64,000 nt of DNA, taken from NCBI GenBank assembly GCA_963924565.1, contig OZ004608.1:10044001-10108000 (forward strand). The letters run 5' to 3'. Position 1 is the first letter of the stretch. Each line of letters opens with the position of its first letter. Shown in pieces: positions 15,363-60,737 of this stretch. The stretch comes from Ascidiella aspersa. Taxonomy: Eukaryota. Below the pieces are notes generated by a model, which was not told where the DNA came from, did no database searches, and was given only the letters and a program-made list of their open reading frames with translations. Position numbers and translations under genes: made by a program.

Positions 15363-16300
15363 ATCAAAGGAACCTGTTTTTTTTTCTCCACATCAACTGT
15401 GCAGAGCGCCGTAGTAATGAGAGAAGCTGCCTTAAAAAATTACCGACCCGTTCCCACCAATCTACTTCACGAAAATTTTTTTTTTTATTTTATTGAATTG
15501 GCGTCGGTCGCTTAAAATAACGACTGGAAACCTCTTTCTTTCTCACCAAGCTACATTCAAAAGAAATGTGGTGCCTCTTCTTTCGAAACAAACGAAATGA
15601 CGCTGTTGACAAGCAAATCGTAATCGCCTTAAAATAACGACTGAAGCTTACTTTTCTCGAAATTGTACGGAGTTGTATGCTACGTCATCCGTAACAGACC
15701 AAATCCGCAAAGTGTTCCGTGGTCATTTGATCAACGGCCGTTACATCGACCACGATTAGTATGTCCCTTTTATTTTTTATTTTTGAGAGACTTAAGGGAC
15801 CTCAGATTTCTAAATTGTATTTGAAAAGGTTTTTTGTTTACCTGCAGACCTAGTGCTCATGCTACACTTTCGTACAGTAATGCCCAGTTTTAGCAATATA
15901 TAAAATTTTTCAATGTCACTAGATGGAGTCAATATCCTGTTGAAATGTGCAATATTCAATTTAGGGCTTGATATGCCAATTTACCTCCAAGTAAATCAAA
16001 AGAAACTATAGATAATATACAATGATTAAAGTGGCATGTCGATTAGTTAACACAACGCGGTATGTCTGTTTTCAAGGTGATTTGCCAACAGTTTTCTGTC
16101 GAAATTGCGCCATACTACTCCCTAATCCTGCATCTTTACTCTGCTACGTGATTAAAGCGGTAAACCGTCTTTTTTAATTTCTGTATGGGTGCAGCGCCAT
16201 TTCTTGTCACAAACAACTTGTCTTTTTGGACTTTGTAATCTCCGTTCATCGTTATTTAGAGTTCCGGCTATTGGTTTTGGTTCAGATCCTAGGTCTAGGA

Positions 16301-35600: not shown

Positions 35601-38600
35601 ATCCAACCGATGTCTGTCTTATCTCTCGTATGGTTTAAAAATTCCACGATGACGCAAGTGAAGCCGACCGCTTCTCTGCACGCCTTGCACCAACGCTTGG
35701 TAATGGCTCGAAGCGATCGCGATCCACAGGCAATCGCGATTTGCGGCTTGACAAGACCACCTTCTCTTTTTAGACCGCTTTGCCATTGAGCCTGGCTTTT
35801 TTCAAATTCAGTCGGCCCGTTGAAGATACCGCCTGCAAAAGATGCTTCTTTGGAAAAGAGGGTGGCCAAAGAAAGCGGCTGCTGTTGAAATAGTCATAGG
35901 TTACTGTATTTTTGAAATGGACAATACGCAAAAAGCAAGGTAAAAATGGGATTCTCCTCTTTGTTGTCATTGCTCAGTTCAGTACCTTTTTAAAAACATG
36001 TGCACTTGCGAACTTCCAATGAAAAAAAAGTGAGACCTGACCTTTCGAAGCAAACAGGCCTTGAAAGCGTCATCAGATCGCTACGTTTTCGTGGAAAATC
36101 CCCGATTCCCCATGTCGAGCAAAACAAATCTGTCGCGCGTTTCGTAACTCTCCAATATTTTTCTTCGATTTTTGCCTTCGGAGAAGACTGACGAAATTTC
36201 TTTTCCTGGAAAAGCCCAAGTATTCAGTTTTAAAGCGTTTGCTGTTTTGTTTACCTATACGACTGTATTCAATCCCAGGGCTCTTTTCGCCTTTCGCCCG
36301 TTCTCGGATGATGTTGGGAGCCGCTCCGGGCATTTCAGGCAGATTCCAGGCCCCTGCTGAACCCCGGTCGCATTTTCCCGAGACCTGGCTGTGGCAGGAC
36401 GGGTTGACCGGGTAAAGCAAAAATCTAACTGTAGATTTTGCAGATTAACGCTTGGAGGGACAAAAAATATCGAGCACGTGCAGAAGTATGTAGCATTTTG
36501 TGAATGATTGACGAAACGTTTTGCAAACCGTTCACAAAATGCGAGCAATACTTCTATTATGTGCTTCGACATTCCTTCTAGGAATAACATAGCATCCTCG
36601 CTCTTATGTATGTAGACGCAAAGTAAGTAGATCATTTAGCAGTCACACATAGTTAACGCTCATGCTTCAATACAACCGCAACTGAAATCCCTTTAACGCC
36701 CCCCCCCCCCAAAAAAAAAAAAGAAAACCACCACGAACTTTCCTTAAAGAGAGGTCTGATGCTTCTGATTGCAGTCGAAAACGTGGTCCTCTATTCGATG
36801 TCGCGGAACTTCGGATTGGCGCAAGACGCCCAACTCGACTTTGTAGGTCCAATCGTGGGCGCTTCGCCAATCGGTAACGCCGCACCACCCAAACCGAGGT
36901 CCCACTTTCCCGAGGCATGGCTCTGGGACAGCTCTCTTACAGGGTAATCCCCGGCATTTCCAATCCAATCAAGAACTCGCGCACCGCATGACGTCATACT
37001 CCTGACCCCCACCGCCTATAGTCACTGTGGAGGACTAACTTACATCATCGTCTTTTGCATTGCAATGCGGCTCTGGCGACGTGTCCTGACGCAATTTACA
37101 AACGAGTTGGCCAAGGTCGTGAGTTCGAATCTCACCGCAGAAAAGGCGTTTGCAAATCTAAATTCCTAACATGCAATTGCTACGAAATGTCTTGAGTCCT
37201 TGAGTCTTGCCACAGAAACAGTCATTTTTTTAATTTTAAAATTTGAATATTAAATATCGGTTTAAGCAATTGCTACGAAATGTCCAAGGTCGTGAGCTCG
37301 AATCCCACTGCAGACCAGTCGTTCGTAACTCTAAATATCGGTTTAAGCGATAGCTACAAAATGTCTCAGGTCGTGGGTTTAAATCTCACCTCTTAGCATA
37401 GTTATTTGCAATAGGTAACCTGAATGTCCTTGGTTCGTGAGTTCGAGTTGCAACACCTGCTGATTTATTGTAGACGTAATATTACATAAAGTCGAACCGC
37501 TTCAAATTTAGATTCAAATTGCAGACGAACGATATGGGCGGCCGAGATATGGGCTGCCGAGATATGGGTCCAGTGGCCGTGTGGGTATGGCGTTTCCGAT
37601 GGCAAACAGCCGCATACAATATAAGGCGCTCGCGCCTCAATCGTTGGACATCGGCGGCTTTTATCCCACTCCGGCTAAACCCAAACCGAGGTCCCACTTT
37701 CCCGAGGCATGGCTCTGGGACAGCTCGCTTACAGGGTAATCCCCCGGCATTTCCAATCCATTCAAGAACTCGCGCACCGCATGACGTCATACTCCTGACC
37801 CCCACCTCCTATAGTCACTGTGGAGGACTAACTTACATCATCGTCTTTTGCATTGCAATGCGGCTCTGGCGACGTGTCCCGACGCAATTTACAAACGAGT
37901 TGGCCAAGGTCGTGAGTTCGAATCTCACCGCAGAACAGTCGTTATCTCTAAATTCCTAGCTGGAGAAATTGCTACGACACGTCCGAGTACGAGATTTGAA
38001 ATCTCACTCTAGTTTAGACCAGTCCTTTGTAAATTAAATCCAAATCTCGGTTTAAGACTTCAAGCGATTGATACCAAATGTCCGAGGTCGTAAGTTCAAA
38101 TTTCACTGCAGACCATTCGTTTGTAACTCTAAATCTCAGTTTCAGCGATTGCTACAAAATGTCTGAGGTCGTAAGTTTGAAAAAATTGCGATATTTATTT
38201 GCAGCAGGTAACTCTGTTACACATACCTGTCACTCCGTCATGGCGTTGGTTCGTGAGTTCGAAATGCCACGCCGACGACTGATTTATTGTTCCTTGCTTG
38301 TACGAACTGCGACGAACGGATCTAGGATATAGCTTATAGGCCGCTATAGATGTACTACTATATACAAAGTCGAACCCGCTTCAAATTTCGATTCAAATTG
38401 CAGATAAACGAAAACGATATGGGAGGCCGATGTTTAGGTCCCGTGGCCGTGTGGCCACCAGCCGTATACGGTTTAAGGCTCTCAAGCCGGCGTCGCTGGA
38501 TATTGCCCGTTCTCCCACTCCGGCTAAACAGAAACCGAGAACTCATTTCCCCGAAACTTGGCTGTGGGACGCGTCGCTAACCGGGTAAAAGTCACTATAT

Positions 38601-41600: not shown

Positions 41601-44600
41601 CCGTCTTCCGTGAGTTCTTCGTGAGTCTCAACCTTCCACTTCGCATCACGAGGGGTGAAGCGATCATCGTGCAAGCGACCGTCTTCAATTACTTCGACAC
41701 ACCGCAAACAGTGAGTCGTTCGTTGTTTTTCTGGTTTGTTAACCCGGCTTTTTAGGAGCCGCTGTACGCTATGCTTGGTCTCTAAGACAAAACAGAGAAA
41801 TAGCGCATTGGGTAATGGCGAAGGTATGCGAGAAATATCGCTACCCTTTATAAGTATCTGTGCTAAAGAAATTAATGCTATAAAAATAACCACAATGTTA
41901 CCCAACATGGTCGAATATGTCTTTAAGTAAATTAGATCAAAATACATTGATACGACCTATAATGTATCTAGCACATCTGGTCGACAACCAATTTCACTTT
42001 AATCAATTAGATTTAAACGCTTGATAACAGGTTCGTGCTCTTAGCCGAAAACCACTAAAACAATAACAACCCCCTACCAAGCTTAAAAACAAAAATTCAT
42101 ATATAGGTAAAGCATTAAGTGTTTTTTGTTGGGACACTTCGGCTTCAGACGCCTTACAAAAGGTCCAAGACCTTTTGTACAAGTGGATCGAATGACCACA
42201 CCTGGACACTTAGAAAAGAAAAAAACCTCTCAAAGAAAGTTGAAGTGCACTCGGCTTGTGACGCTCCATGGCACATGGTTGCCAAAAAACGCGGGTGCAG
42301 GCGAGCGGAAACACTTCGAAAGCCATATGCAATTAATTGCAGCAACTGACATGTTGCTGTACTAGCAATCCCACACTACTAGTTTCGTGTGGAGTCGTTG
42401 ACGTGCTCACAGCAAAGGTCTCGGTTGAAACTGATGTATTTCTTTGCCTTGTCGACCGAATCTGTATTCCGAAACGCAGTGTGATTATATTTGATTAATC
42501 TGATTCGAAATCACCACTACCACTATATATATACACAGTTTTTCAGTCCCGGTACTTTAGTCGTACAACAGAAACGAAACCTCATAGCCGAATAACCAGC
42601 CATCTAACGATTTTTCATATTGTTATTCTTTTTGTTAATTCTGCCTAGTACGCAAAGTAATCCATTTACCTCGCCTCGTCCGCCAAAAACGAGCGCACCC
42701 GCTGCCTATGTCCTTAAGTTTTACTTATTCTACATGTAGCATAGGCCTTTCATACATTTTTACGTTCTAACTATTGAATCTGGAATTAGAAGCATACAAA
42801 ATGTCGTCCCCTTTCAATGGTCAAACCAACCCTTAAAATATTCTATTCGGCCTTATGTTAATCAAAGCACTTTAATCAATTCGTAACAACACAAAAAAAC
42901 TTCTGGCGGCTTTTGACCCCTCGCCCCTGACCCGACCACTTTCTCTTCACCCAGGTCCAGCTGACCCTGAGCCAGAGCGCCAACTTCGAGTTGATCACCC
43001 CCGGGAATGACCCGATCGCCGCCGGCCCCATGCGCACCCTCTATGTACCCAGCAACGGCGCCGTGTCCGTCAAGTTCCCGGTACGCATGAACAGCCTCGG
43101 GGAAGTCCCGATCACGCTGTCGGCCGTTGCCGAGCTGGGCCAGGACGCCCTTACCAGGGTCGTATACGTCAGGGTAAGGATTCGATATTTATGCTTCGGA
43201 ATATTTTTTTATATATTTTTTTTCTTTTTGGTGTGTAGTTCGTTCTTCAATTTACTTCGATCCAGCATACCTCTCTCCTACTGACAAATTTTAAGTGGTT
43301 ACTTGTGAAATTTATCGTTAACATTACCAGGGTCTTGTACGTCAGGGTAAGGATCTAATGTTTGTGCTTCGTTATATTTTTTTTATTTTTATTACTTTTG
43401 GTGCGAGGTTCGTGCTTTCCCCTTTTCTATCCGGCACAACTGTCCTCAATTGTTGAATTTTTACTGTTTACTGGTAAAATTTGCCGTTAAAGTTTCTAAA
43501 GTCGTGCTTAATAAGTCGAATATCTAAAACTCTCATCGAAAGCTTTTTTTCAATAGCTTGTCTGCATTTCTGCGTTTTCTGTTTTAATTTCTTTAGCGTC
43601 TTGTTTCCTTAAAACTATACTTTGAATTAAACCTTTACCTAAACTGTCTTGTGTATAGTAGTTAAAGTGACTATAAGCGTTTAGTAATTTAGTTAGTATT
43701 AGACCAGGGGTTAAACTTTTATAGCGGTGTATTTATGGCGCACCAATTAAAATCTTGCTGGGCTGAAGAGTCGAGTCCAGTCCCCATAACAGTATAACAC
43801 GAATCAAACTTAACCTCAACTTTCTTATTTTGTGCCGTTCACAACACCTTCCTTAAACGTCCTTTGTATACACAGCCGGAGGGCATCCAGCAGTGCTATT
43901 CCTCCTCGATCCTTGTAAACCGCGAGAGCGACCGAGATCCGACCAGCACCGAAGCCCTTGAGATCCTGATTCCAGTTGGAATCGTGCCCGGGTCCGAAAA
44001 GGTCAAGCTATCTGTTTACGGTAAGCCTTCGCGACCCGGCATCGGTGTTCAAGATTTTTTTTATGAGAAGGGTCGGTTTTTAGGGTTTGGCTTTTGTTTC
44101 CACTTGGGATTTTTGTTTACGCTTTCTACATAGATTTAAAGATTGGCTTTTGTTTCCGTTGAGCAATTTTAAAAGATCTCGGTTATTAAATCGCTCCCCT
44201 CAAAACTTCTTTAAAACACAGACCTGTTTTATAGGTTTATATTTGTGCAAGTTTTGTGTTTTGATTATTACATATTTAAAATATTGTTTCGACTGATACA
44301 CTGGTAGCGTCTCCATTAAACTTCCATCACCAACAAATAGTCCCAAAATACGGAGTTCCCAAAGTCAAAACTACAGAAGACGCCCAAACGATCTAAAGCA
44401 GCGCTTTATTTTTATCCTTTTCAATTTTTTCACATTACATTTTTTAATTTTCAATTCTATCTTCAGGCGACATACTGGGAAACACGTTAAGCAACTTGGG
44501 CAACCTGCTTCGTATGCCTGGCGGTTGCGGCGAACAAAACATGCTCGGGTTTGCTCCCGACGTCTTCGTCACCGACTACCTGAAGAAGGCGGGCAGACTG

Positions 44601-47600
44601 GACGCCGCCACCGAGGCCAAGGCGAGGAGCCACATTCGTACCGGTTACACCAACGAACTCAAGTAGGTGTTGTTTATTTTTATTGGATAACTACCAAGTG
44701 TATTTAGTAGCTTGGGTGATTCGCAAATTATTTAAAAATAAGGTAATTAGACGAATCCCATTTAGAAATCATCTGATTTTTGTTCTCTTATTTGTGTTTT
44801 TTTGTCGGTGTTATTTAAGGCGCTTCGCAAGCTTGCTATAAAAAATAAATTATCGCTTTTCATTGAAACGAGCTTATCTTTCTACCCCCTTGTTTATTTT
44901 CGGGTTGCCGATTTAGCGTTTTGTTTCCAGGTGTGAATTTTCCTGGCGTATTGTAAAAACATTGGCCCACTCTGTCGATTAGCTTTTTCGTTTTACTTAT
45001 AACATAAAAAATAAAACTTACGAAACGTTAAACCCGGAAAATAGATAATACAAAAAGTGATCGGTGGCAAAATAAAAAATCATTTTGAAACAATCAACAG
45101 ATAAAAGTCATCTATAACTGGTGTTATTTCACAACAATTTTTAACCGACAATAGCCGTTTAGGGCTACTTTTCCTACCCCCAATATACCAAAGCTAATAT
45201 ATTTTCTTAGAACAAAAAATAACTTATTGCAAAAAGACAACTTTAGTACCGATAAACGAAAGTACTTTTCGAAGCCATCGCCACCTAGAAAAAAAACTGA
45301 CACTGCAAAATCCGCAAATTAACAAAATACCCTTTTCACTAACACTCTTTTCACCTGCAGCTACAAGCACGGGGACGGATCGTACAGCGCTTTCGGCAGA
45401 GGCCAAGGCAGCACCTGGCTCACCGCCTTCGTTGCCAAGTGCTTTATCTTCGCGCACAAGCTCCAGGCCGACTACGTGCAGGCCAAGATCATCGACGAGG
45501 CCCTCGACTTCCTGATAAGCATGCAAAACTCAAGCACTGGCGAGTACATGGAAAAGGGCAAGGTCTCGCACAGGGCCATGCAGGTACGAACATGCTATGG
45601 ACTGTAGACTATGGAGTTGCCTTGCATGCTATTCGGACTATTGCAGTGGTTCTCACTTCTCAACCTTATTCACCTTGCGGACCCCTTTTGCTTCCTTGAA
45701 ATAATGGAGGATCACAGTAATGTTTAAAGCTGTCCAAATTGAACTTTCACGGTGCAATAATTGCATTCTTACATTTAGTTCGGTACTCGTTCTAACACTA
45801 GATGCTAGATGCACAAGCTGTCATCAGATTTATTAACAATAAAATTTATCAAGAAAAACAGGCTCCCCCTACTGTTAATTTATCAGCCTATGAAATAAGA
45901 GAAGTTGTGATTCCTGTAAACCTTTTCACATACCCCAGTTTGACAACCAACAACCTAGACGTTTATTTAGAGGTGCCAAACCCCGGTGTGTTAAACATTG
46001 TTACGATTTTTTTTGTTTTTTTCTGTCCCTAGATTAACGCGATACATTGCTGTACCGATTAAATCTCCGTTAATATTTGTTAACCTTGGTTAGGTCAATA
46101 TTTTCCATATTTGCCACTAGCCTAAAATAGCTCAAGTTTATAACGATGTTACCGCTTTACATTTTATCTACCCCCTTCTACGGTTTGAAGGTGAACATTT
46201 TTAGTCAATGCCCAGTTGTTTACTTTCAATAATACATAATTGTATAACGTATATACATGACAATCACATGTGTGTTTATCGCACACCATTGACTTTGATT
46301 GTGGCCCTTAACACAATTGAAATCCTATTCTACAGGGAGGAGTTACGAAAGGAGTCACAATGACTGCGTACGTTCTGGTCACCCTCACTGAGACCGCCTT
46401 CCCCTACAAGAACAAGGTAAGTTGCTGCTTCATTAATTGTGTCGCCCAAACATAACAAACTTGACCTTTTTTTCCAATTGTATTTTAAACTTTTTGTTGC
46501 ACACTGTTCTATATTCCGCCACTTTTTGCAGCCATACAGAAAAAGCCGAAAAAAAACCTTGATATTAAACTAATTTTAACGCTCCTTTTGAAATAATCTG
46601 CTCTGTATTTTAAAAAATATTTTGAAATTAACTTGTCAAAGGATGTGTGATTACAAAGGCTGAAAAAAGCGGCCGTGACGAGCGGTTCACTTCAAAATAG
46701 GTCCTTAAAAGTAAAACCTGTTAAAAAGAACTTCCTTCCAACGGCATTGTTGGCTGAAATCACAATAAACACTCTTTCCCGTTTTCAGAAAGTTGCCGAG
46801 TCCGGTGCCAAGGCCCGCGCCTACCTGGAAAGCAACTTGCAGGGAATCAGGGATGACAAGTACGCCCTTGCCATCGTCACTTACGCGCTCACCGTGTCCG
46901 AAAGCAACATGGCTGGCCAAGCGCTCGGCTACCTCAACGCTCTTGCGTCTGTCACTGGTTAGTGGGTTGTATAATGTATACTGTTGGATGGACTGTTTTC
47001 CAGGGGTGCTTGTATGTTCGACAAATAGGCAAATCCACAGTCACAGTGTTGTGTAGTGTTGTATTGGGGGTTTAACTTAATGTGTGGAATACATTATGCA
47101 AATGATTTTTACTAAAAAATTTTTTTACTTGACAATGCTGACGTTTAACCTTCTATTAAAATTTGTTAAAAATAGAAAACGACAAAATTTGAATTTATGT
47201 AAACATTATGCGAGTCATTTTTACTATGAAATTTTTCACGTTACTTTACTGACGTTTACCTTTTCATTAAAATTTATTTAAAAATATTGACGTCGAACAT
47301 TTTTTATTTATGTAAAAATACTCCATTTTCTAACACGACCAAAACACCAGTATCTGCTTAATGCTTTAATTGTGAGGTACTAATATGTAATGTAGGGCTG
47401 TGTTTCAAAATGTCTTCAAAACCGAGATGGCATGACACTTCTCTCCACCAGGTGGCCTTAAGTACTGGGAGGCTGAAACCCCCGACGCTTCTGTTTACAA
47501 GAGCGCCTGGCGTCGTCCCTACTACCAACCTCCCACCAACGAAGTTGAGATGACCGCTTACGCGCTGCTCACTTACGCCAGGATGGACAACGTCGCCGCC

Positions 47601-50600
47601 GCCGCACCTATTATGAAGTGGCTCGCCTCCAAACAGAACCCCAACGGCGGCTACACCTCGACCCAGGTGTGGGATTTTGTCATTTTGTGGCTTTTTAACG
47701 CGTTTGATTTAACCTGCGATTAACCATTTCGCTGTTGGTCCGTTTTGTAATTTTGACGGAAAATACCTATTTCGCTGCTAGTCCTTTATGAAATTTTTTC
47801 GGAAAAATACCGATTCTGCTGCTAGTCTGTTTTGCAATTTGGTAAAAAAATACCCATTTAGCTGTCAGCCCGTTTTGCATTTGTGGCGTAAAACTACCTA
47901 TTTCGCTGCTAGTCCGTTTTGTAGTTTGGCAGAAAAACACCTATTTTGCTGCTAGTCCGTTTTTTAATTTGACAGAAAAGTACCTAGTTCGCTGCCACTT
48001 CGTTTTGTATTTGGGCGGAAAATACCTATTATGCTGCTGGCCCTTTTTCTAATTTAGTGGTAAAACATCAAATTTGGCTTGCAAATCCGTATCGTTACTG
48101 CCACTCGCTTTATATATACTTTTCACTGTTTGTTTTTAACTCGCAGGACACAGTGATAGCGATCCAGGCGATGTCGAGTGTTGCCGGTCTGCTTGTGTCT
48201 CGACCTCAGGCTCTCACCATATCAGCAACCCACTCAATCGACCAGAGCTTCTCCGCTGATTTCAATATAAACGACGCTAACTCAATGGTCTTTAATCAAG
48301 TCAACGTGAGTTTACAAGACTGGAAAGATTTTAGATATGCTTTTGATACAAAGACAAGGAGCTTTAAGGTCTCCATTTATTTGGCATATTACAAAGAATA
48401 ATTTCAAACTCAAGTCTATATATATTAACATTTTTTAACCAACATTTGTCCTAATTTTTTTCGACAACATTAAAGTGATAGAGGTCAAAATAATGTAAGG
48501 TTTCCAAACACCTGTTAAGATTACTTCAATTTTAACCCCCTTTTCTTTAAAACTATTTTATGCGGGAATAAAACTTATATCTTCGAAATAAAGCAGTGGT
48601 TTTCAACTTGTTTTGAGTCACGCACCCCTTAAACACAATATCAAGCTTACCCTGTTTTCTTTTTGGGTCCCTGTTTTCTTTTGACAAGACCGCAAACTTT
48701 AAAACATTATAGTTGAATTAAGAAGAACTTGAATTTAAAAACGTTTATCATATGTATAATCTACAAATCTGCATTTCACCCCTGACAAAACAATACCAAG
48801 CTTACGGCTTTCCTTTTTTTCTAAATACTACAGCGAATTTTAATGCAACATTGTAGTTAAATCAGGATAAAAATTAAAAACGTTTACCATACTAAAACAT
48901 CTGTATTTTCCGTGCACTCGCTGACCCAACCGCCAAAATCGTTTTACCATCTGATAACCAACAATAATTAGGGTATCCTTGCCAAATGGCCAAAAAATAC
49001 TCTTAGCAATGTATCCAAACAGCATTTTGCATTGAATGTGTTACACATTTCAAGATAGTATAAAAAGTTTGTTAAGCAAAATCATAATTCTGATATATCT
49101 TTACATAGATTTCAAATATTAAGAAAACTGTTACAACTCCCGTCTCCTGAAAATAACCGACTTCCATCTTGTTCCAGGTTCCTGCCGTCGACGGAAACGT
49201 GGACATCCGCGCCGATGGAACCGGAGTCGGCGTTGCTCAACTCTCGGTCTGCTACAACATCCCCAACGACCCGTTCGAGGGCGAGCCGTTCGCCTGCACA
49301 CTGGAAACACTCTCGGCCAGCAGCGCGATGGCACACGTCAAGTTCTGCTGCTCGTAAGAAGTGCTTTTTCGACGCCGTTGCTCGCCCTATTTTGAATTCC
49401 AATCTGATTTGAACACTCGGTTAAGGCGCTGTGTAAATTTACGCTGTAGGCTTTCCACTGTTTCTGGTTCATGGATGGTTGCCACAAAGTAGATACGCAT
49501 TTCCTGCAATATACACAATTACACATCCATTCATTCGAATTAAGATATACTGACGTTACCTTTGCTGGCGAAATATATATATCTTTTAAGATCTTTTAAT
49601 TGTGTCTGACCTGAATTGCTAGCTTTGCCAGATTATTCTGCTGTTACTGATCAGGAACTAAGGTCGACATTTATTTTGCAAGGGTCAAAGTGCTTTCCAA
49701 TATCACATATCCAGTCGTACATTCCTGCAATGTGTACTAAAAATGCTCTGTGTTTGCAAAAACAAGGTAATTGCTTCTAAAACAGCTTGTCATAATTGCT
49801 GCCTTTGGAGCCACAGCATCCAAATGTCAATACATTGCAAAAGCCCGATGCCCCCAAAAAAATATTTTAAAGTCGGGCCTGTCCAGTAACTAACAAAGCC
49901 TTTTCATCCATCAAAAACGCTTCACATTTTTGCCCGTTTTTTAACTTGCTGCTAGCATATAAGTTCAGTAACCCAAACAATTATGAAAACGCCACCCAAT
50001 CTCTAAACTCTAATCTACCCCCGTATGACAGACTGCGCCCCGAAGACATGAACGCCACCGGTATGTTCCTCTTCGAGATGACCCTGCCCAACGGATTCAC
50101 CGTCGACGAGGAAAACGAGAAGGAACGCAACCGACGCGCCAGCCGCGTCGAACTGGAGAGCAAGGACGGAAAGAACAGCTTTAACGTCTACTACGATAAC
50201 GTAAGCGCCCTTGCATTTTAGTTTCGCACTTGGGTCACCCGAACGAATACTCAAAAAGGATTGGAAAATACCATATAAATGGATTTTCAATTATTTGAAA
50301 AAGAACTTGTTAGTATAGTGTGGTACCAGTAATTTTACGATACTTCTTAGTCAGCCGTTTTAAATTGTTTGTAGATATTTTCAACTCGGGTGAGCATTCA
50401 GGCAAAGCTGTTTTTTTTACTTGGAATTTTATGTTTTGTCCAGCAGATATAAAATCATAATATTTTTGTTGCTTTTTTCTTAGGATATACGTAACTTTCA
50501 AGTGTATTTGTAACCTTATTTAATTTATTACCATTCTGCGCTTATACAATTTGTTTTTTTAACTTGTCATTAGGACGCAGGTTTAAAGGATAAAATCGAT

Positions 50601-53600
50601 CGGCTGTAAATAGTTTAAAAACAAGGCCTAGAGCTTGCTTTAAAACCGTTCCTGACCATTAGGAATTGTCGGATACTTATCCGATACCGATTCCCGATAT
50701 GTTGTTCAAAAGCACGGATGCCGATCCGATATAAAGATACCTCGCGTGAAACTCGATGATCTACAAACGTTTAATGTAATTTTTTACGCTGTGCTCTAAA
50801 ATATTGCCACTTAACTGCTTTTTGATGAAAGGGTAGAATTCTTTGCTTTGATTCGCAAACCACGGATAAGAAGCATTATAGGTGAATTCAAATTAGTGTC
50901 GATACCACTCTAGAATCTGACAAGAGCCCATCTTGCCACTTAGGCATCGGGTATGGATCCAAAATTATCGGGGACCCCCAGCCACGATCATTAGTCTTAG
51001 CGCAATGCTTCATATCCTAGCGCAATAAAACGCGCCTTGTCGATTAATGCTCACCAGCTTCTAACCTGATACTTGTGTCATCTCGCAGCTGGATGTGGGA
51101 GAGACGCTCTGCGCCAACGTACAACTCATTCGATTTGAGGAGGTGGCCGACTCGCAGCCTCAGCCCGTATACGCCTACGATTACTACAGTCCAGGTGAGA
51201 GCCCGAACTTTTTGCGCACCGTTCCGCCAAAGTCGATCTTTAACACAGAACTTCGCTTGGTATTCCTGGGTCGGTTGGGTTTGTCGAAACACACGATTGG
51301 GTTTTCTCTTTGTAACATAATTTGTTTCGAAAGTGCCGCAATAAGTTGGCCGTGGCATTTCAGTCTGTTTTTGATTTCGTATTGTTTTTCAAAACCAGTC
51401 TACGTCTTTTAAAACCCTGTCTTTAATTTGTTTTTTAATAATAATATGCGGCCACAACAGGTGCCGCCAAATATTTGCAGACAGCAAACGGGTTTTAGGT
51501 TGGACACAATTTCTAGTTGCTCGTTTTGCACATTTCATAAGCAAATTTAGGCCACCCACAAAAATGTAAATTATTATTTTTTTTATTCAAAAACTTGTTT
51601 GCTTCTTGTACAGAAACTGACGATGCCTGTTCATAAGGCCAAATATATATTCATGAAAAATTTCATTCTATGAATTCTACCTGTTTTTTACAAACAGTCT
51701 CCATATTCCCACAACTGTACGTTAAAAGAAATAACACAACTGTTTTTTTTTTACAATCTAGCGCGCAAGGTCACTCGTCTCCTCGAGATCGCCCGCTTCC
51801 GCTCCACCCAAGTCTGCCAGCTCTGCGGCCAGGAGTGCGTCGGCTGTCCAGGTAATGACGCAAGCGACGATGACGTCACCGGTCCGGGCGGCTCGGCTCC
51901 GGCCCGCCACCGTGCGGCCACTTTTGGGTGTTGGTGGCTTGTCGCGCTCCCGTTGTTTGCCGTGCTTCGACACTACTAACCCCAAATATTGCACACAACG
52001 CGCATTTCAGCAATATGTGACGCGCCCATTTTTTTCCGTTTAATGCGGAAAAAACGGTCGCCTGTTTAAAAATACGATTAACAATCGAAACACGGCTGTA
52101 CAATCGCAGTATATGCTTTCATTGTAATGTCATGCGGTAAAACCGCGCCTATACATTTTCTCAAGTAAAGTAAACGAAATAGCCGAAGTGTTTGGAAAAG
52201 TCATTAACAACGAAACACGCGCCACAATTTGTACAATCGCAGTATATGCTTTGAATGTAGAATGTCATGCGGCAAAACCGCGGCTACATTTTTACTTTTC
52301 TCAAGTAAAGTAAACAAAATACTTTTTTCAAGTAAAGTAAAACGAAGCCAAAGAGTTCAAAAACATCATTAACAACAAAACGCTCTGCTTCAAAAGTAGA
52401 ATCGCGTACATTTTCATTGTAGAATGTTACACATTTTTCTGCGTTTTTCCATACGAAGTAAAACATATAGCCAGTTGTCTGAATATCACTAACAACGCAA
52501 CCATTCATGTCCCATTTTCATCGTAGCAGTGGTCATGAACGGCAAACCGCTTTTTTCCCGGAACGCTATTTGTCATTCAACTGTAATCATATCCATCTTT
52601 CAAACCGCCGTGTTGCAAAAACTTTTTTTTAACAATTAAAAACGACTTCGTTTATTTACACGAAAATGCTGCGACTGAACCCCCTAAATTTTTGAATGTG
52701 CGAACTTCTGTAAATTTGTATAAATGAACTGAGCTTTTTAAGTTTTAGTACTGTTTTGTACGAAACATTTTAATCCAATTTCTTAACTTTTAGATCTGTT
52801 AAAGATTTTTTTACAAAGTTCATTTTCTCCATGCGAACTGGCTGCCTCGCCAATACCATAGTATAGGTTTATCAAAATACCTTTCCTCAAACAGTTTTAG
52901 TGCTTTGGTTCGAAACTCACTTCTTAATCCATTTTTTTTAATTTTTAAAGTCTCTTGTTTTTTTAACAAAGTTTCTCAAAGCGAACCGCTTATCTGGCCC
53001 AATACACTATGGTTAGTTTAATCAAAATAATTTTCTCAACTCGTAACAAAAGAACGGTTCTGCGTCAAATTGCATTTTTACTTTTTAACTGACACCCCAC
53101 CACCCCGCACATACACACAGACGCGTTTTTTGCTATTTTTGTGCGGCTTTTGTGCACGAATATTGTGTTTCTGACTGCGGAGACCAAAAGGAATGTGTTT
53201 GCAATCTGAAGTGCTAACTGGCTTGTGAGTTTTGCATTTTTGACCAGTGGCCGACGGCACATGCGACAGCACGTGTTATTCGACGCAACAGAAGGGTATG
53301 TTTACTTGTTCTGTGTTTTACTCAAGTGTATGCTCCGTATGTGGTAGCCGTCCTGTGCCTAGCCGAAATTCATTGGTCCTCTTTTTCTCCTGTTCTCTTA
53401 GGTTCACGAAGTGTACAGTTAAAGTGCGCTTAAACTTTTATTTATTCTGTTAATGCTTTCCTATTTTTTTTTATATCGCAAACGGAACTTCAAAATTTAA
53501 CTCGTATAATGCTGTAATTAAAAATAAAAAACAGTAAAACCATTTTTTTCCTAGACTACGTAACTTTTTCCTGAACTGTGTATGTGTATTATTACACACA

Positions 53601-56600
53601 GTAGGTTTAATATCTCTTATTTTTTTGTAATGACGACTATTGTGTATAGTATTCCATATCACTCCCTTTTTGTCAAAAGTTAGTTATTAGACTCGTTGTC
53701 CGTCCATATAGGTGTATTGTTCTTGTTTGTTTTACTTAAACTCAAATCTTTTAAAAGTAGGTTTTATATGTTTTAAACCTACTATAAAGCCTATGGATAG
53801 CATCTTAGGTTTGATTTTAAATGCCTTAATAGTCGAACTGTCCATCCGTCAATTTTTGCTAGAACAGCAAGTGAAATTCCTTACCCTTGTTGGTCTTCCT
53901 GCCAATATTTGTTTTCTCATCCATATATGTACACGCGTTATCTGTATTAATAGCTCGTTTTCGTTTCTCACCTTTTTGTAAATGTTTTCTACCTGCCGCT
54001 ATTTATAAATATATTGTTAAGTCTGGTTTTGTAAACCATTGTGGTGATACGAACACTGAACGCAGTGACAGAAAGTCAACCAACGTGAATATTCCAGCAA
54101 AGCACCAGGGAGAAGTTTTAGCAGCCTTTGTTATTCCCCGTTTATAGATGTGTTTTGACATTTACCAAAAAATGACATCACCTGTCATCTGGACGTCATA
54201 CCCGTTAAATTGCGTCACGCACTAACTCCATTTTGCATGCACGTTTTTTCACTACTTCAACAAAGAAAACCTGGTGTTTTCACTGCATGGCAACGGTGAA
54301 CGGTGAACATGTACGACAGAGTATTTTATCTGGCACCGACCGTAAGTAGAAGTAAAAAGTAGAATAAAACTAACGTTCGTATAGTAGTCGCCTGCCGATA
54401 GCTTCTGTCGAACAAGCCTCCGAATTGTGGTAATATAAAATATTTGTTAAGAAAAAATATTTGTCTACTTTGCTTACAATTTACAAAAAACGCTAGAATT
54501 TACGAAAAACTTGAAAAAAAAATTATAAACATTTCTTTATTATCTTAAACCGCCGGCGGTAATTTAAAAGGCCACTCAAAAGTTAAAGCCACCGAAAGTA
54601 TTCTTAAAAAACTCTTTATTGTATTCACAAAAAAAACCTTCGCTTCACTTGGCATCGCCAACAACGTGAACCCACTACTAAACAAAAATTGTAAATTCTT
54701 AACCGCCGGAGGTAATTTAAAATAAGACACCTAAATTATTGCTAAAAAAACTCAAAAAATGTATCCCTAAAAAAACCTGCGCTTTACTTGGGCACCGCCC
54801 AAAAACACGTAAACTGCCCACTAACCGCTTTTGTGTTTTTCGCTTTCCTCCAACATTACAGGTCCGCAAATGAGCGGCTGGCGTCCCTGGTCTGTCTGCA
54901 CCGACTTCTGCAGGAGCGAAATGTCGACGAGGATCAAGCAGTGCATCGATCCTAACAACGATGAGGTGCTCGACATTGAACAATGCGGTCGCGTCGACCA
55001 GCCCATGGAATCGCGCCAGTGTCCATTGGAAGGATTCCCCTGTCCGAGTAAGTGGGAATTTCTTATTTTGTTTTTGGGATTTTTCTTCGGGAAGTTGCTG
55101 CTGGAAAAGCGCGTCAAAGCCACCTTTTGGAAACTTGTCAAAGAGATTACTTCTTTTATGGAGAAACATTAAAAACAAATGTTTTGCTCCGTGTTGTAAT
55201 ATCGTTAAAAATTGCAACAAAGCCTTTGATAGTCAGCAATATGGCACCGAACACACATCGCATTAAATAAGTTAACTCTGTATTTTGCCCAGAAAGATTT
55301 GCTTATCGAAAACAGCAAGCACATGTAGAGTGATCTGATATACGAAAGTATGTTTTTTCACTTAGGAACCTCCACACAGTGCCAGGATGTTTCACGTGGT
55401 TTGATTACGTACATGAATATACGTTGTAAACGGGGAGAGTTGACCGTGTTGTATGAAAAACAGTTACAGTGAGCAAATCGCACTATATGAAAAATATAAC
55501 AACATCAAGATATATTTTTTTGGCTGCAGCTTTCCATCACGGCTTGTGGACTGATGTCCCACGAGGACTCAATCTCGGCTGGTATTATCCGACAACCTGC
55601 CAATCGAACAGCCGCAACGGAGCCACGAATATTCCAGGTGGGTTGCTTTAAAAAAAATTTTTTTTTTTTTGTGAAAAAATCCTATTTGGGCAAAGTTGAA
55701 AAACGTAGGATGTCAAAGTTAAGTATTTTGAACCAAATTGGCCTATAAAAGAAATACAAGTGGCTGTGAAGCAAGCATGATAATCATCAGAGGTCGTGAG
55801 TTTGAAACCTCACCACAGGCAGAATTTTTGTAGACCAGCCTATCCGACCAACTTTTTTACGATACAATATAATTAAGCCAACTGATTTCGGTAATAGGAG
55901 TAATTGGGGTTGGGTATTTATTTTCGGTAATTATGAGCATACCATAGTCGTTGGCCAGTACTGCTTCAGCAGCGCTATAGCTCACAGTGCTTACACCCGT
56001 GTGGCTTGCATGGCTTAGTTAAAAATAACAATACCACACTTTATATCTTCAAAGGCACTCACCTAAACAAGTTGCCGAGAAGAACTTCTTCGTCGTCTAG
56101 GTCTAGGTTGGAGTCGATTTCCGGCGAGCATTTCACCTGCACGGCCACCGTGTTCCAAAATCCACTTAACGCTGCTGGTTTTACCGTCTCGATTCTGGTC
56201 AAGCCAGCCATGAGCTTTAAGAGTGTCCCATCTACTCTGTTCTCGTTCGGCACCAAGGATAGACCCATCTACCACTTCGGAAAGCAGTTTTGGTGAGCTA
56301 GCCTTCGAAAATGCGAGACTTTCAATCCAAATTTTAACCTTGTTCTTCGGTGTTACTGTTAGCTATTGTAGTGCATTGTAATACAGGTTTTCAAACTGCG
56401 CGTCGCGACGCCCTGGTGCGTCTTGTTAAAAATTCCAAAGGCTCCAAACAATGATTTTGATTCGAATCTGTTGATGTAACTAAATGCTTGCAGATATTAC
56501 TATCACCTTCTAACAAAAAAAAAAACGCCTAAATGGATTAAATAAGTTTCTTCAGCAAACAAACCAATAAAAATAAACTGGCTTTCACGTACAAGTTTTA

Positions 56601-58955
56601 TTGAAAATTAGTAAAATTCTTATTGCTAAATGCGACAATAGAAAAAAAATTGTACACAATTGTCACCTCCATATGAAAAAGCGTTTCGCTTTTTAATACA
56701 TTTGTACAGCTTATAAAATCTACTGCTTTAATAACTTATATCCAACCCTCAAGAATGTAAATGTTCTCGTGGCGCATGACTGCTAACTTGATCCCTACCT
56801 TTACTTAAAACCATTTTCTCCTGTTTTTAGGAAGGACTCCTTCAAATTCACTCTTTTCCACGGAACGAAAGCGTACTTCGTGAATGAGATCAAAATCAGG
56901 TGAGCGTTTTTCTTTGTCCGTTGTATTTCGTTGATTTAACGAAGAATGCATGTTATGCTGGCCACTACGTGCATTGCGCGAACAGCTTATTTTCGGACAT
57001 TGTCCCTGAAAGGGCTCCTCGATTTTACTGACTTGATTTTATTGGCGATAAAGCGATAGAAAACAGGCGAAAAAAATAAGTAAAAAGACTGGGTAGAAAA
57101 GGAACGACATCAAAAATTTACGCCATTTCTTTGTATGTTAATCATAGCTTTTGTTTCGTTTACTGAGTACTGACATTTTAGGGTACAATATACAAATATA
57201 GTTGTTATAAGCAGGAATGTCTGAAACTTGAAAAAATGGTAGTTAACCTTGTTGTTTTTTGGTAATTTACCTCCAAGGTAAATACTGCATTCTATGGCAA
57301 ATCATGGCTGAATACCTATAAATTTTGGTTTTGGAGCGGCACCGATACCGTCCTAGTATCGGTAGGTACCTAAGTACCGACACTACCAGTCGGCATAAGG
57401 TATCGGCTTCGGTCCGATATTATCGGACATCCCTATTGATAAGGCTCTTATTTTAGGTAAACTCTTTTATTTTGGCTCCATAAATATTAAAATCGAGTAC
57501 ACAACGACATACCGTTTACAAGTTCCAATTCTGACCGACAAACCTTGTCGCCAAACGTTAGCTCAGTTCGTACAAATTTAGCGCAAGGCCACATGGCAAC
57601 ACCGTTCAAGAACAAGTCAAGAACAGGGAAGAATACGAACATAGTCTCAGGCTCCTTGATTTTCTTTACCACTATATTTTGTTTACAGTCCATACGAAAT
57701 TGTTTTATATGCAAAATTTTGGATCAATAGCACTCACCCCAAAATCACATTGACCAAATTCTACAACACTGGTATCCAAGTCCCTAGACCCGACCAAAAC
57801 CAAGATACTCAATTTTTTTTTTTTTTTTTTACATAAATTCTTTTGTTTTATGACAATAGCAAAATACCAGTGGGCGAGTGGAGCCATCTTGTGGTGACGT
57901 GGAGTCCAAGTTTGGGCGCCAAGGTCTACATCAACGGCAACGAAGCGGGAATTCCCCATTCCTACTCGTTGTTCCACAAGTTCGAAGCGAAGGCGAAGTC
58001 GCCCAAGTTCTACCTGGGCCAGAACACCTACGGAAACAGCTGGAGAAGAGGTAAAGACTATTTTCCGAGTTGCGCATCTGTTTTGGAATTTCCACAGCTT
58101 TTTTTTTGGAGAACAACTGTCGCGTTAAGACGCCATAACAATTTTAGAAACTGCATTTTTTTTACCTCGCTGGAAAGAACGCCTCAGTTGCATCAACTGT
58201 GGTGACAATTATTCAAGACTTTTTAGATTTTTTATTTTCAAATCGTTTAAATCCGGTCTAGGATAACTTCAAACTGTCTTCGCACTATTATCGACTACCC
58301 TATAGTGAAGTCAATATGCCGCTAAGAAATGTCGGATTCTATTTTGAATGTATCCACTGTTCCAATATTGTGGCCCGTTGTCCAGAACACTTGCCACTTC
58401 TAGCATCGTATACTCGTCAAAATGAGAATAAATTTTATCGATTACGGCGCCTGGTTAATATAAAAAGAACTGGCAGATATAAGGCGTGTAATTCGTATGA
58501 GATTTGCGTCGCCTTCTGAGAAAACGAAATATATATATATATATCTTTTAAGAGCTATAAAAAAGTGCCTGACATAAATTACTAGCTTTACTAGAGTATT
58601 TTAACTGCTATTGTGCAGTCTAGTTCATATTTTTCCCAAGTTTTCCGATTCATTCTACCTCTGCCATTTCATCGCAGGTTACATAAACGGCAGCCTGTCC
58701 AGCCTCGACTACTTCTCACGCGTCCTAGACACGATCGAGGTCAACGCCCTGCACCAGTTCTACGCCCCTCTCATCGGCCCGGCGAATCCCGACCCCGAAA
58801 TGACCCCGCGCCAGCTGCGTCACTTCGCCCCTCGACAGCTGAACCAGTGCTTCAAGACCCCGTGGACCCTGCAACAGCTCATGGTCACCCCCAATATCTG
58901 CTCTGTTCGTGTCCCTCCGCCCCCACCCTTTACCGTGTTTTCACCTGCTTTTTAA
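20614..58955 (+). CDS. CD109-like thioester-containing protein (A2M/TEP family), long isoform. Exons: 20614-20678, 21628-21782, 21896-21924, 22228-22399, 22508-22701, 22848-22972, 23202-23346, 23478-23708, 23794-23876, 24170-24329, 24638-24811, 25240-25434, 26020-26172, 27486-27608, 28588-28642, [one of 14 bait cassettes], 40223-40337, 41597-41710, 42955-43173, 43876-44020, 44467-44662, 45361-45583, 46336-46416, 46789-46957, 47452-47666, 48147-48305, 49178-49353, 50032-50200, 51089-51194, 51762-51851, (53248-53295), 54862-55047, 55530-55637, 56055-56292, 56831-56899, 57860-58050, 58678-58955
   Basis: Signal peptide [20 protein letters not shown], then A2M-family motifs [66 protein letters not shown] (44523-44537), [49 protein letters not shown] and a terminal Cys cluster [11 protein letters not shown]. 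All junctions are phase-compatible. Confidence 0.93.
20698..20990. mobile_element. Palindromic foldback MITE-like element in the first TEP coding intron
   Basis: Long inverted repeat centred near 20845, e.g. TACCACAACGCATATTGTTTGGGTTAGGGTGCGGGTTAGCGTTTGG versus CCAAACGCTAACCCGCACCCTAACCCAAACAATATGCGTTGTGGTA; outer arms TTTCACTATTGTACGT / ACGTACAATAGTGAAA. Confidence 0.75.
28923..29100 (+). CDS. TEP bait cassette exon 1: [60 protein letters not shown]
   Basis: ttacag acceptor, GG|gtaaat donor, 178 nt (3n+1), open frame. Confidence 0.9.
29361..29544 (+). CDS. TEP bait cassette exon 2: [62 protein letters not shown]
   Basis: ttgcag acceptor, GG|gtaact donor, 184 nt (3n+1). Confidence 0.9.
29846..30002 (+). 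CDS. TEP bait cassette exon 3: [53 protein letters not shown]
   Basis: ttgtag acceptor, GG|gtaatt donor, 157 nt (3n+1). Confidence 0.9.
30147..30321 (+). CDS. TEP bait cassette exon 4: [59 protein letters not shown]
   Basis: gtatag acceptor, GG|gtaatt donor, 175 nt (3n+1). Confidence 0.9.
30714..30891 (+). CDS. TEP bait cassette exon 5: [60 protein letters not shown]
   Basis: ttgtag acceptor, GG|gtaact donor, 178 nt (3n+1). Confidence 0.9.
31358..31538 (+). CDS. TEP bait cassette exon 6 (acidic): [61 protein letters not shown]
   Basis: acgcag acceptor, GG|gtgaga donor, 181 nt (3n+1); not in the supplied ORF track. Confidence 0.88.
32884..33031 (+). CDS. TEP bait cassette exon 7: [50 protein letters not shown]
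   Basis: atccag acceptor, GG|gtatgg donor, 148 nt (3n+1). Confidence 0.88.
33495..33657 (+). CDS. TEP bait cassette exon 8: [55 protein letters not shown]
   Basis: gcgcag acceptor (second in-frame AG 6 nt downstream), GG|gtatat donor, 163 nt (3n+1). Confidence 0.88.
34159..34306 (+). CDS. TEP bait cassette exon 9: [50 protein letters not shown]
   Basis: cggcag acceptor, GG|gtatgt donor, 148 nt (3n+1). Confidence 0.88.
34795..34945 (+). CDS. TEP bait cassette exon 10 (acidic): [51 protein letters not shown]
   Basis: tgtcag acceptor, GG|gtaaaa donor, 151 nt (3n+1); not in the supplied ORF track. Confidence 0.88.
36279..36411 (+). CDS. TEP bait cassette exon 11: [45 protein letters not shown]
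   Basis: tcccag acceptor (alternative in-frame AG ending at 36227), GG|gtaaag donor, 133 nt (3n+1). Confidence 0.85.
36775..36943 (+). CDS. TEP bait cassette exon 12: [57 protein letters not shown]
   Basis: ttgcag acceptor, GG|gtaatc donor, 169 nt (3n+1). Confidence 0.88.
37108..38265 (+). repeat. Degenerate tandem 70-80 bp units with a tRNA T-arm/B-box-like core (AAGGTCGTGAGTTCGAATCTCAC) in the introns after cassettes 12 and 13
   Basis: Repeated GCAATTGCTACGAAATGTCC..GGTCGTGAG(T/C)TCGAAT units near 37110, 37270, 37350, 37430, 37900, 38070 and 38150; a related copy lies at about 55790. Confidence 0.6.
37525..37735 (+). CDS. TEP bait cassette exon 13 (basic, chimeric): [71 protein letters not shown]
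   Basis: ttgcag acceptor, GG|gtaatc donor, 211 nt (3n+1). Confidence 0.88.
38404..38584 (+). CDS. TEP bait cassette exon 14 (polybasic): [61 protein letters not shown]
   Basis: ttgcag acceptor, GG|gtaaaa donor, 181 nt (3n+1). Confidence 0.88.
39205..39522. mobile_element. hAT-type MITE in the intron after the bait array
   Basis: Starts CAGGGGTGGGCAA like the 4030 element and ends TTGCCAGGTCTG; the flanks ATATAAAG / AGCTAAAG resemble a decayed 8-bp TSD. Confidence 0.55.
43151..43490 (+). repeat. Tandem duplication (about 173-bp unit) copying a TEP exon 3' end and its splice donor
   Basis: TTACCAGGGTCGTATACGTCAGG|GTAAGGAT at 43151 recurs as TTACCAGGGTCTTGTACGTCAGG|GTAAGGAT at 43324, with similar downstream intron sequence. 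Confidence 0.7.
47720..48065. repeat. Intronic minisatellite, about 40-bp unit (GAAAATACCTATTTCGCTGCTAGTCCGTTTTG...), roughly 9 degenerate copies
   Basis: Direct repetition visible from about 47720 to 48065. Confidence 0.8.
51762..51979 (+). CDS. Alternative terminal exon form of the TEP: read-through of the 51851/51852 donor encodes a GPI-anchor-like signal [42 protein letters not shown]
   Basis: The frame stays open past CPG|gt with a polar linker, a small-residue cluster (GGSA), a spacer and a hydrophobic tail ending at TAA 51977-51979. Confidence 0.75.
52085..52500. repeat. Degenerate tandem repeat (about 135-bp unit, about 3 copies) downstream of the GPI-isoform stop
   Basis: GTACAATCGCAGTATATGCTTT..AATGTCATGCGG..AAACCGCG..TACATTTT..CTCAAGTAAAGTAAAC..TCATTAACAAC recurs. 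Confidence 0.65.
54545..54810. repeat. Intronic direct duplication (about 155-bp unit)
   Basis: TTAA(A)CCGCCGG.GGTAATTTAAAA ... AAAAAACCT.CGCTT.ACTTGG occurs twice. Confidence 0.6.
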
Positions 58956-60737
58956 AACAAATCACCTGCTTTTTAAAACAAACGAGTCATACCCGAAAGT
59001 CTACCCTTCCATTCCATTTTAACTTCCGCGCGGTGGTCACACTAAAGTTACATCCTTTTTCCAAAATTTGCTTCGCTGCGCGTAAATTTTACTTGATTTT
59101 GGTTTACGTTTGTGCATGTTCATGCCAAAAGTCTTTTACATCATTATTATACGTACTAGCTTTTTATGGCAGTTCTCTGCAGTCTTTTTTTTTTTGAAAA
59201 ACAAACCATTTTCCCGCTTTTATGTCCAGCCTTTTTGCAGTTTTTACTAACCTTTTCTGATTGAGATCCGTCACAATTCGCCGCATGCCAAAATTTAAAA
59301 ATACACGCGTAACATACCCATGTGCATATTACACACTTGGTGATTTTTAACACAAAAAGCCTACGGTGCGAATAGCTAACTTTGAGTGCCTAACACTTTA
59401 CATAAAACCTTGTCGACTGCACGCCAACTGTAGGCGCATAAAAACAAAATAGCAAGCAAAGGTAGGTTCGGAAAAGGTTCCGGTTTTAGAAAGACACTTA
59501 GAACTGTCAAAAAATCTTAATCTAACCTTGTACCTGTTACACACGTTAAAGAGATTTGAAACATGACATCTGAATAGTAATCACTGATAAATAACAACTT
59601 GAAAAAGGTATTTGTTAATTGCTCATGAAAACTAGGCACTATTAAACGAATCAAAATGCAGCCAGATCGTTGACATCAGATAGACCCAACCTACCACATT
59701 CGTAGAAGAGTTTTAAGTGTTTTTCTTAACAAAACAGCCTTCTATTTAAACAGGCTAAATAAACGTGTTAACATGAAAGTCATTTCAACAGCCAGGTGGG
59801 TAATTTAAAACGATTAAGAAGGCAAAGATTTTTAGGAATGGGCGTAATGAAATTTTCAATCTACATTTCCTGTCTGGGGTTAAAAGTCTTGTTTTTAGAA
59901 GTCAAGTTTTAGATATGGCTTTAAAGCAATCTGATTAACGCTATTGAAGTGCTCTGTCTTTGAGACATCAAAAAAACTCGGAGGTGGATATCGACAATGA
60001 CACATCGCTATTAACACTAGCCGAATTATTTACTGAGTTATAATAAGGTTGTATGTTTATAAGGTGATAAAACGAGTCCTGGTCCTGGTCATGACTAAAC
60101 ATCACATAGGGCTAGTTTTGCCACATGATACCGATTTGCGATTACTTGCTAGATTCAGCGAAGACAGTGGATTTATTCCCAGGAAAAGAACACAATAACA
60201 GAGAAGGAAGAAAATCAAACAAAAGCGCTCCGAAAAAGTAGTTTAAACGTAAAAGTCGGAAGCCGATTAACAAAGATAAAAAAACAGTTACAGAGTTCAC
60301 GAAAATGCAAGCAAACAAGAACTATATGGCATCTTTAAATGAGGACATAAATATTTAATTGATTTATCTTTTCGACAAAACACCCACACGAAATTAATAA
60401 TCTTTTCTATCATCGGTTCACAACTAGGCCTTTGGATGTACATTGATATGTAAGAGGTTACGATAGTACAAGTGGTGCACAATAATATCTTTACTTAAAA
60501 CGGTTACAGAGACGGCAGTTCGACAAGTGTGACTCAGTACTGGGAAAAATTTCCTTTATTTTTGAAAAATTTATCGAAATTTTGTTTTTTATCGAAATTT
60601 GAATGTATTGTTCGCAAAAATTTACCAAAAACTATCGGTTATCTGGACAAAATACGAAACAGTGAAGGTACCCAAGTTCGATAAACACCGTAAAGCGCAA
60701 TAGCAGACAACAATTGAACAACGAACGAATAGAAAAT

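Follow-up and report, generated by a model that had tools for sequence, protein, structure and literature searches.

The C-terminus is the usual basis for classifying thioester-containing proteins (TEPs); it may be a C345C domain, a glycosylphosphatidylinositol (GPI) signal, a transmembrane segment or none of these. The locus described here lies in a stretch of 64,000 nucleotides from the ascidian Ascidiella aspersa (hereafter the window; assembly GCA_963924565.1, contig OZ004608.1, positions 10,044,001 to 10,108,000 of the forward strand), in which a CD109/iTEP-type TEP gene runs from ~20.6 kb to 59.3 kb on the + strand. Two 3′ outcomes of the splice donor after position 51851 are both found in RNA: splicing adds a TSP1 repeat and a LamG3 module, and skipping of the donor adds 42 residues. 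The RNA evidence shows that one gene can switch between a TSP1-LamG tail and a probable GPI signal, and the locus reveals an ascidian-wide class of TEPs with such a tail. As a whole we favour, at rather better than even confidence, an account of one gene with two 3′ outcomes, a GPI-linked short form and a secreted long form that would dock on polyanions.

The switch point is the last exon shared by both forms (51762..51851, + strand), which encodes the C-terminal Cys cluster that follows MG8. This exon and its phase-1 GT donor at 51852 lie exactly where an initial annotation, made from the sequence alone, had placed them. RNA was followed in two datasets, X4, which consists of stranded raw RNA reads from a study separate from the DNA runs (6% of the run was read), and X3, which is not recorded as RNA yet whose contigs skip the same introns. 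The predicted in-frame splice 51851->54862 is carried by 15 reads with 12 starts in X4 and by one X3 contig at a depth of 182, compared with 4, 12 and 5 X4 reads at three constitutive joints upstream of 51851. Since this joint is present in RNA, the TSP1 and LamG exons are part of the TEP gene and, as had been supposed, need no start of their own.

All the tail exons lie on the + strand. The first (54862..55047; depth ~14-16) encodes a TSP1-like repeat with the motif WxxWxxC and six Cys. Pfam TSP1_ADAMTS (PF19030) matches 54864-55046 (E 5e-5) with a score equal to the cut-off, 23.8 bits, which bears out the annotated domain; the exon is 29-49% identical to four orthologues. The repeat is divergent, and orthologues score below the cut-off. 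The exon is joined to one that encodes the linker and the N-terminal strand of LamG (55530..55637; 55047->55530, 10 X4 reads), which carries a conserved GLW and a Cys. Two further LamG module exons follow, 56055..56292, supported by RNA and by the orthologue alignment, and the 69-nucleotide exon 56831..56899, with joints on both sides (56292->56831, 23 reads; 56899->57860, 5 reads). The LamG3 core exon (57860..58050) is single copy in the genome (308.6 Mb in 75 contigs), and Laminin_G_3 (PF13385) matches 57861-58049 with 33.3 bits against a cut-off of 27.6. A repeat at 55640-55682 was skipped by the tool, which is why 55637->56055 is missing from the list of joints; 58050->58678 is visible only as loose ends in X3. 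Along the spliced path every acceptor is AG, every internal donor is GT and there is a single, in-frame stop.

The last coding exon of the tailed form (58678..58955) encodes the end of LamG, helices and a Pro-rich tip, followed by a 3′ untranslated region (58956..59319) with AATACA at 59300; six X4 molecules end at 59319. The annotated stop at 58955 is in frame but proved to be allele-specific. In a second allele, found in X2, X3, X4 and half of X1 (heterozygous), 58932-59042 is replaced, 111 by 108 bases, and the protein ends three residues after 58931 rather than seven, so that its tip is four residues shorter. About 70-80% of the RNA encodes the tailed form, which is thus the major product.

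Two other stretches were considered as tail exons. An exon-like stretch at 55367 was dropped, having neither a joint nor an orthologue match. The 48-nucleotide piece 53248-53295 was rejected as part of the main tailed form, as reads join 51851 straight to 54862 and the orthologues are without it. The junction 51851->53248, which the initial annotation had proposed, was not found among the 15 joints listed out of 30, and the piece is unmatched in orthologues. It may be listed as a candidate in-frame cassette exon with two Cys (53248..53295, + strand; AG and GT ends; GC content at third codon positions, GC3, 0.73) inside the untranslated region of the read-through form, and depth is slightly raised in its bin in both X3 and X4. 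A second acceptor near 53402 (53403 onward) could end a third, short secreted form.

When the donor is skipped, the reading frame continues for 42 more codons until it meets a stop at 51977-51979, as had been annotated. The extension (51852..51979, + strand) consists of a polar spacer and then a hydrophobic stretch. Its composition is exon-like, with a GC content of 64% and GC3 of 68%, falling to 40% GC after the stop; in 12 other introns, the opening 128 bases have 27-46%. An X3 contig (51824-52184) covers it. Sense depth in X4 is 2.6-6.9 over 52036-54237 and then 0.2 over 54238-54604, and the X4 bins of other introns are at 0 (50201-50934, 56440-56806). Likewise, X3 contigs reach a depth of 41.8-53.6 in the intron after 51851, compared with 2-7 in other introns and 182 at the spliced joint. 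Because this intron is covered in sense while neighbouring introns are empty, a read-through form exists, and the possibility raised in the initial annotation, that it is not expressed, is not borne out. Set beside the depth of ~14-16 over the TSP1 exon, it makes up roughly 20-30% of the RNA. Its candidate polyadenylation signal needs revision: the ATTAAA at 52635 is present, but RNA cover runs past it to about 54.2 kb and it was rejected as the 3′ end. The AATAAA at 54363 fits better and gives a long 3′ untranslated region (51980..54385, end approximate).

From its sequence, this extension is likely to be a GPI signal. Its best 15-residue hydropathy is 2.1, small residues (G-S-A) stand 28-29 from the end, and a hydrophobic stretch occurs at the same C-terminal position in 18/45 TEP C-termini examined. 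The GPI-like read-through is coding-like here and is absent from the two other ascidians checked (Clavelina and the contigs L006-L008).

The tail of the long form was modelled on the Phallusia orthologue, giving a ConA-like sandwich with a mean pLDDT (predicted local distance difference test) of 59 and a core of 70-86. Against ConA-like domains the model reaches Z-scores of up to 14.7 (root-mean-square deviation, rmsd, 3.2; 209 residues aligned). Four matches are tied at a lower level: the sugar-binding CBM40 (Z 11.1, rmsd 3.9, 173 aligned), collagen IX NC4 (Z 10.9, rmsd 3.6, 176 aligned), PAPP-A (Z 10.5, rmsd 5.3, 179 aligned) and PTX3 (Z 10.4, rmsd 3.5, 161 aligned). The top structural matches, those from Foldseek included, are ConA-like subdomains within the receptor-binding fragments of clostridial neurotoxins at 7-17% identity, the lectin-like subdomain matched at Z 14.7 being 11% identical. 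What they share with the tail is a common fold, and nothing points to a toxin function. A shared fold by itself shows no function, and a lectin activity, suggested by modelled fold and charge, is putative. The LamG core has an isoelectric point (pI) of 9.7-10.4 in 8/8 tailed TEPs, against a pI of at least 9 in 1/20 unrelated LamG3 stretches and of 4.5-5.5 for TEP bodies. The initial annotation had called the tail LamG/pentraxin-like, and of this the LamG half stands. Pentraxins carry the signature HxCx[ST]Wx[ST]; it is absent in 8/8 tailed TEPs, there is no Pfam Pentaxin match, and pentraxin membership was rejected.

We propose that both proteins would share the whole trap, that is bait, thioester, MG8 and Cys cluster, and differ only after it. 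A weak donor may compete with an intronic polyadenylation site near 54.36 kb. Where the donor is skipped, the 42-residue extension would act as a GPI signal and keep the trap on the cell surface. Where it is used, the long form would have no anchor and be secreted, and its strongly basic LamG sandwich, together with the TSP1 repeat, may attach it to polyanions, for example sulfated glycans on microbial surfaces or in the matrix or tunic. The switch would thus swap tethers, and an identical trap would be found on cells in one case and in fluid and matrix in the other. No RxK/RR furin motif was found in the CUB-MG8 linker of the window protein or of four orthologues, and therefore trapped proteases or tagged targets probably stay on either tether; cargo would be retained and not shed as in human CD109. 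If the tail does target glycans, recognition and covalent tagging would be combined in one chain.

Several observations weigh against this account. No RNA end is listed within the intron after 51851, and the X3 contig 53461-54888 enters the TSP1 exon; therefore, retention of the whole intron also fits. The X4 evidence comes from that 6% of the run, and X3, as said, is not recorded as RNA. The 18 hydrophobic tails span hydropathies of 1.7-3.2, so that 2.1 is a low value among them, and the extension ends in polar residues. Elsewhere the read-through is not hydrophobic, with only 7 residues, polar, in Clavelina (RefSeq isoform X5) and 12 in L006-L008, three metagenome ascidian contigs apparently of one species, and no GPI-like alternative exon was found in the corresponding L006 intron. 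An RNRR furin-like motif, unconserved and found in the window protein only, lies inside MG8. Lastly, the 20 control stretches for charge were shorter than the cores tested. Some of these points invite the explanation that the tailed form alone is functional, the read-through arising when a weak donor lets the intron be retained or the RNA be polyadenylated too early. Its hydrophobic end would then be either chance or a decaying relic of an ancestral CD109 GPI signal. The short, polar tails of Clavelina and L006-L008 and the contig that reaches the next exon speak for it. Moreover, AT-rich introns often yield hydrophobic frames: a hydropathy of at least 2.0 within 25-70 residues is found in 5/324 donor-like read-throughs of the window, the extension included, or 5/67 of those of suitable length. 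We nevertheless consider this explanation unlikely, given the fall in GC content after the stop and the contrast with the 12 other intron starts, the share of 20-30% of RNA against no cover in other introns, and the end of X4 cover before the acceptor.

A related proposal accepts the short form but makes it a type-I membrane or plain secreted protein. One basic and two polar residues do follow the hydrophobic stretch, and the Clavelina isoform X5 is a short form without an anchor. Yet a hydrophobic run of ~15 residues with a three-residue end is short for a transmembrane helix, and the spacer and small-residue site fit the rules for GPI signals as generally understood. Moreover, CD109 relatives carry GPI signals at this position (PMC7016707, accessible part), and we regard a non-GPI short form as quite unlikely. 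It is possible, though less than probable, that both forms are made and that the LamG tail binds protein rather than acting as a glycan tether, either as a bridge to a haemocyte receptor for opsonisation or as an oligomerisation unit. The fold matches the protein-binding PAPP-A, collagen IX NC4 and PTX3 as well as it does the sugar-binding CBM40, and the tail occupies the place that C345C has in C3/C4/C5 (see PMC7016707). Set against this are the high positive charge conserved in 8/8, which suits polyanion binding, and the missing pentraxin signature. A protein-binding tail and a non-functional read-through are the main rivals, and each is compatible with some parts of the account that we favour. 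An independent gene with its own 5′ end as the main source of exons 54862-58955, which the initial annotation had itself raised, is largely refuted and very improbable. A free-standing protein with a signal peptide and a LamG module does exist (P0144), a Ciona intestinalis LamG fragment is annotated separately (H2Y291), read depth climbs towards the 3′ end, and one of 37 intron ATGs (53261) is followed by a hydrophobic run and phase-1 donors. However, as many reads span the joint from 51851 as span the constitutive joints, full-length fused proteins exist in Clavelina, Phallusia, Ciona savignyi and Styela with the same exon order in L006, and climbing depth is expected from poly(A) selection.

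The tail is not peculiar to this locus. It is found in Clavelina (XP_076811443-7, XP_076814764-8, two paralogues), Phallusia (CAB3229046), Ciona savignyi (H2Y5J8) and Styela (XP_039256177-80), as well as in unnamed marine records. It is 30-40% identical to the window in 4/4 orthologues aligned. LamG3 scores above the cut-off in both Clavelina proteins, Phallusia, P0008, C. savignyi and Styela. As the tail is common to Phallusia, Clavelina, Ciona savignyi and Styela, it is therefore an ascidian-wide form, and every named tailed TEP found is ascidian (139 matches among 1.84 billion representatives, 20 of them looked up by name). These tailed proteins are already in RefSeq/UniProt, without comment. 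The ascidian CD109-like records share the layout of TEP, (TSP1) and LamG3 and the junction of the window gene, but none has a GPI-like read-through. Clavelina also has alternative baits and a short isoform that parts at the same point. In contrast, Styela has a tailed protein without the TSP1 repeat, and its hydrophobic-tailed form is a separate gene (XP_077965842). These tailed and hydrophobic-tailed CD109-like proteins (P0273 and P0138, Styela clava) are placed as sisters in a quick tree with an SH-aLRT (Shimodaira-Hasegawa-like approximate likelihood ratio test) value of 100. This suggests that the duplicates there have perhaps divided between them the two outputs that a single gene has here. 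A larger claim would make ascidian CD109 a combinatorial immune effector, whose locus chooses a single bait out of 14 and, as an independent and regulated choice, ends the protein in the GPI tether or in the TSP1-LamG targeting tail. The pair of 3′ ends would then go back to the ancestor of ascidians and have been shared out later between the Styela duplicates, and the tail would provide the closest invertebrate relatives of vertebrates with a thioester opsonin that finds its own targets, no lectin being needed beside it. This larger claim strikes us as tentative and on the whole doubtful.

As to the source of the tail, P0144 (from Logan) is a secreted protein of 382 residues with a signal peptide and the Cys/GLW and LamG3 module but no TEP body, and a module of this type is a possible source for exon shuffling. 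In the ESM Atlas it recovered generic LamG3 clusters only. Word-indexed homology searches were uninformative, the LamG exon returning three candidates of which none passed and the Phallusia C-terminus returning only itself though relatives are known.

A TSP1-LamG tail lies outside textbook TEP architecture, as the initial annotation had held. Human CD109 (PDB 8s3o), the best solved-structure match for the Phallusia orthologue P0002, shares with the window gene the MG domains, the bait, the thioester with its His, MG8 and the terminal Cys cluster, and its GPI signal stands at the position of the read-through extension. In CD109, cleavage of the bait and attack by the thioester capture the protease, and the complex comes free because MG8, which bears the GPI anchor, has already been severed by furin (PMC12927315). 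Unlike the window gene, it has no TSP1 or LamG tail and, in the passages cited, a single bait. No 3′ splice choice underlies its soluble form, which arises when furin cuts ahead of MG8 and a protease or phospholipase drives release (PMC12927315). GPI signals have been predicted in many invertebrate CD109/iTEP proteins, and mutually exclusive bait exons are described for Biomphalaria BgTEP2 (12) and BgCD109 (8 predicted), Drosophila TEP2 (5) and Chlamys TEP (6), in tandem as in the window gene; the passages cited from PMC7016707 report splicing in the bait region only and state that BgTEPs and BgCD109 have no additional domain.

Bait splicing, GPI-type CD109 and 3′ anchor switches are thus each known. 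A literature search, with slight coverage of the subscription journals that are home to the older Ciona TEP papers, returned no description of a TSP1-LamG-tailed TEP or of this 3′ switch. Membrane and secreted forms are chosen between a 3′ splice and intronic polyadenylation in the IgM heavy chain, acetylcholinesterase (H/T/R), NCAM-120 and CD55. The same RNA-processing logic would pick the anchor here; unlike those cases, the secreted form of the window gene gains two folded domains and is combined with a 14-way bait choice. Hammond, Nakao and Smith reportedly described, in 2005, a GPI-anchored alpha-2-macroglobulin of Ciona intestinalis; to judge by the title, this would be an ascidian A2M-family cDNA. 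The switch may explain how such a report sits beside ascidian database records that end in LamG.

Upstream of the switch, the gene is that of an ascidian CD109/iTEP-type thioester protein, and its best relatives are ascidian CD109-like proteins. P0002 is colinear with it along the full length, tail included (tblastn), and in the PDB scores 657 bits with CD109, 429 with A2ML1, 412 with A2M, 355 with TEP1 and 237 with C3. On the + strand, the first coding exon (20614..20678), with the signal peptide, was read by eye and resembles the P0002 N-terminus; the exons of the MG1-MG6 region (21628..28689) come from tblastn of P0002. The thioester exon (44467..44665; Pfam TED_complement E 1.5e-15) has an intact GCGEQ, and the catalytic His is intact in the exon after it (~45565); both are also intact in 4/4 orthologues. 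The exons for the CUB end and MG8, the receptor-binding domain (49178..51194; Pfam A2M_recep 51089-51193), are linked by the X4 joints 49353->50032, 50200->51089 and 51194->51762. The domain order MG2, MG3, bait region, A2M, TED, MG8 follows from the colinear P0002 alignment and from Pfam on the orthologues and two window exons. C345C/NTR had no match in the 8 full-length ascidian proteins scanned with Pfam, and the CUB-end exon, searched against the PDB, found a single weak match and no CD109 alignment. By sequence, the features of a CD109/iTEP protein are present apart from the linker furin site, a GPI anchor being suggested by rule-based features in the read-through form only. In a quick tree of 28 unevenly trimmed rows, with no bootstrap and no outgroup, the window gene adjoins Phallusia (63% identity, SH-aLRT 93); because it holds no A2M or C3 outgroup, this tree is silent on CD109 versus A2M/C3 affinity. 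Three other thioester exons in the genome, among five candidates scored, are 44-48% identical and resemble other TEP classes.

As the initial annotation had counted, there are 14 alternative bait exons (28900..38585, acceptors approximate, + strand); the motif FPE[TA]W closes every one of them and is followed by a phase-2 GT donor. Two of them, 36860-37165 and 37640-37955, carry FPEAW and not FPETW and form a recent tandem duplicate (271/283 aligned bases identical, flanking intron included). The array of baits is still growing. The suggested 28 isoforms are arithmetic, 14 baits by two tails, and the combination of bait and tail is inferred, as short reads cannot link the two choices. In Clavelina, RefSeq isoforms X1 and X5 have the same bait and different ends, parting at the same junction.

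Some minor features of the window may be added. The end and donor of exon 42955-43173 are duplicated ~170 bases downstream (43150-43350), giving a possible pseudo-donor. High-copy repeats at 49530-49700 and 57399-57435, with a depth of 10^4-10^5 in DNA contigs and inverted joints, are probably small mobile elements in introns. Upstream, a gene at ~6400-15400 on the + strand has a weak WWE match and motifs reminiscent of a DDHD/SEC23-interacting phospholipase A1. Downstream, an open frame of 383 codons on the - strand (60741-61889) contains a short repeat and has no Pfam match; it belongs to the 3′ part of a neighbour transcribed towards the TEP gene.

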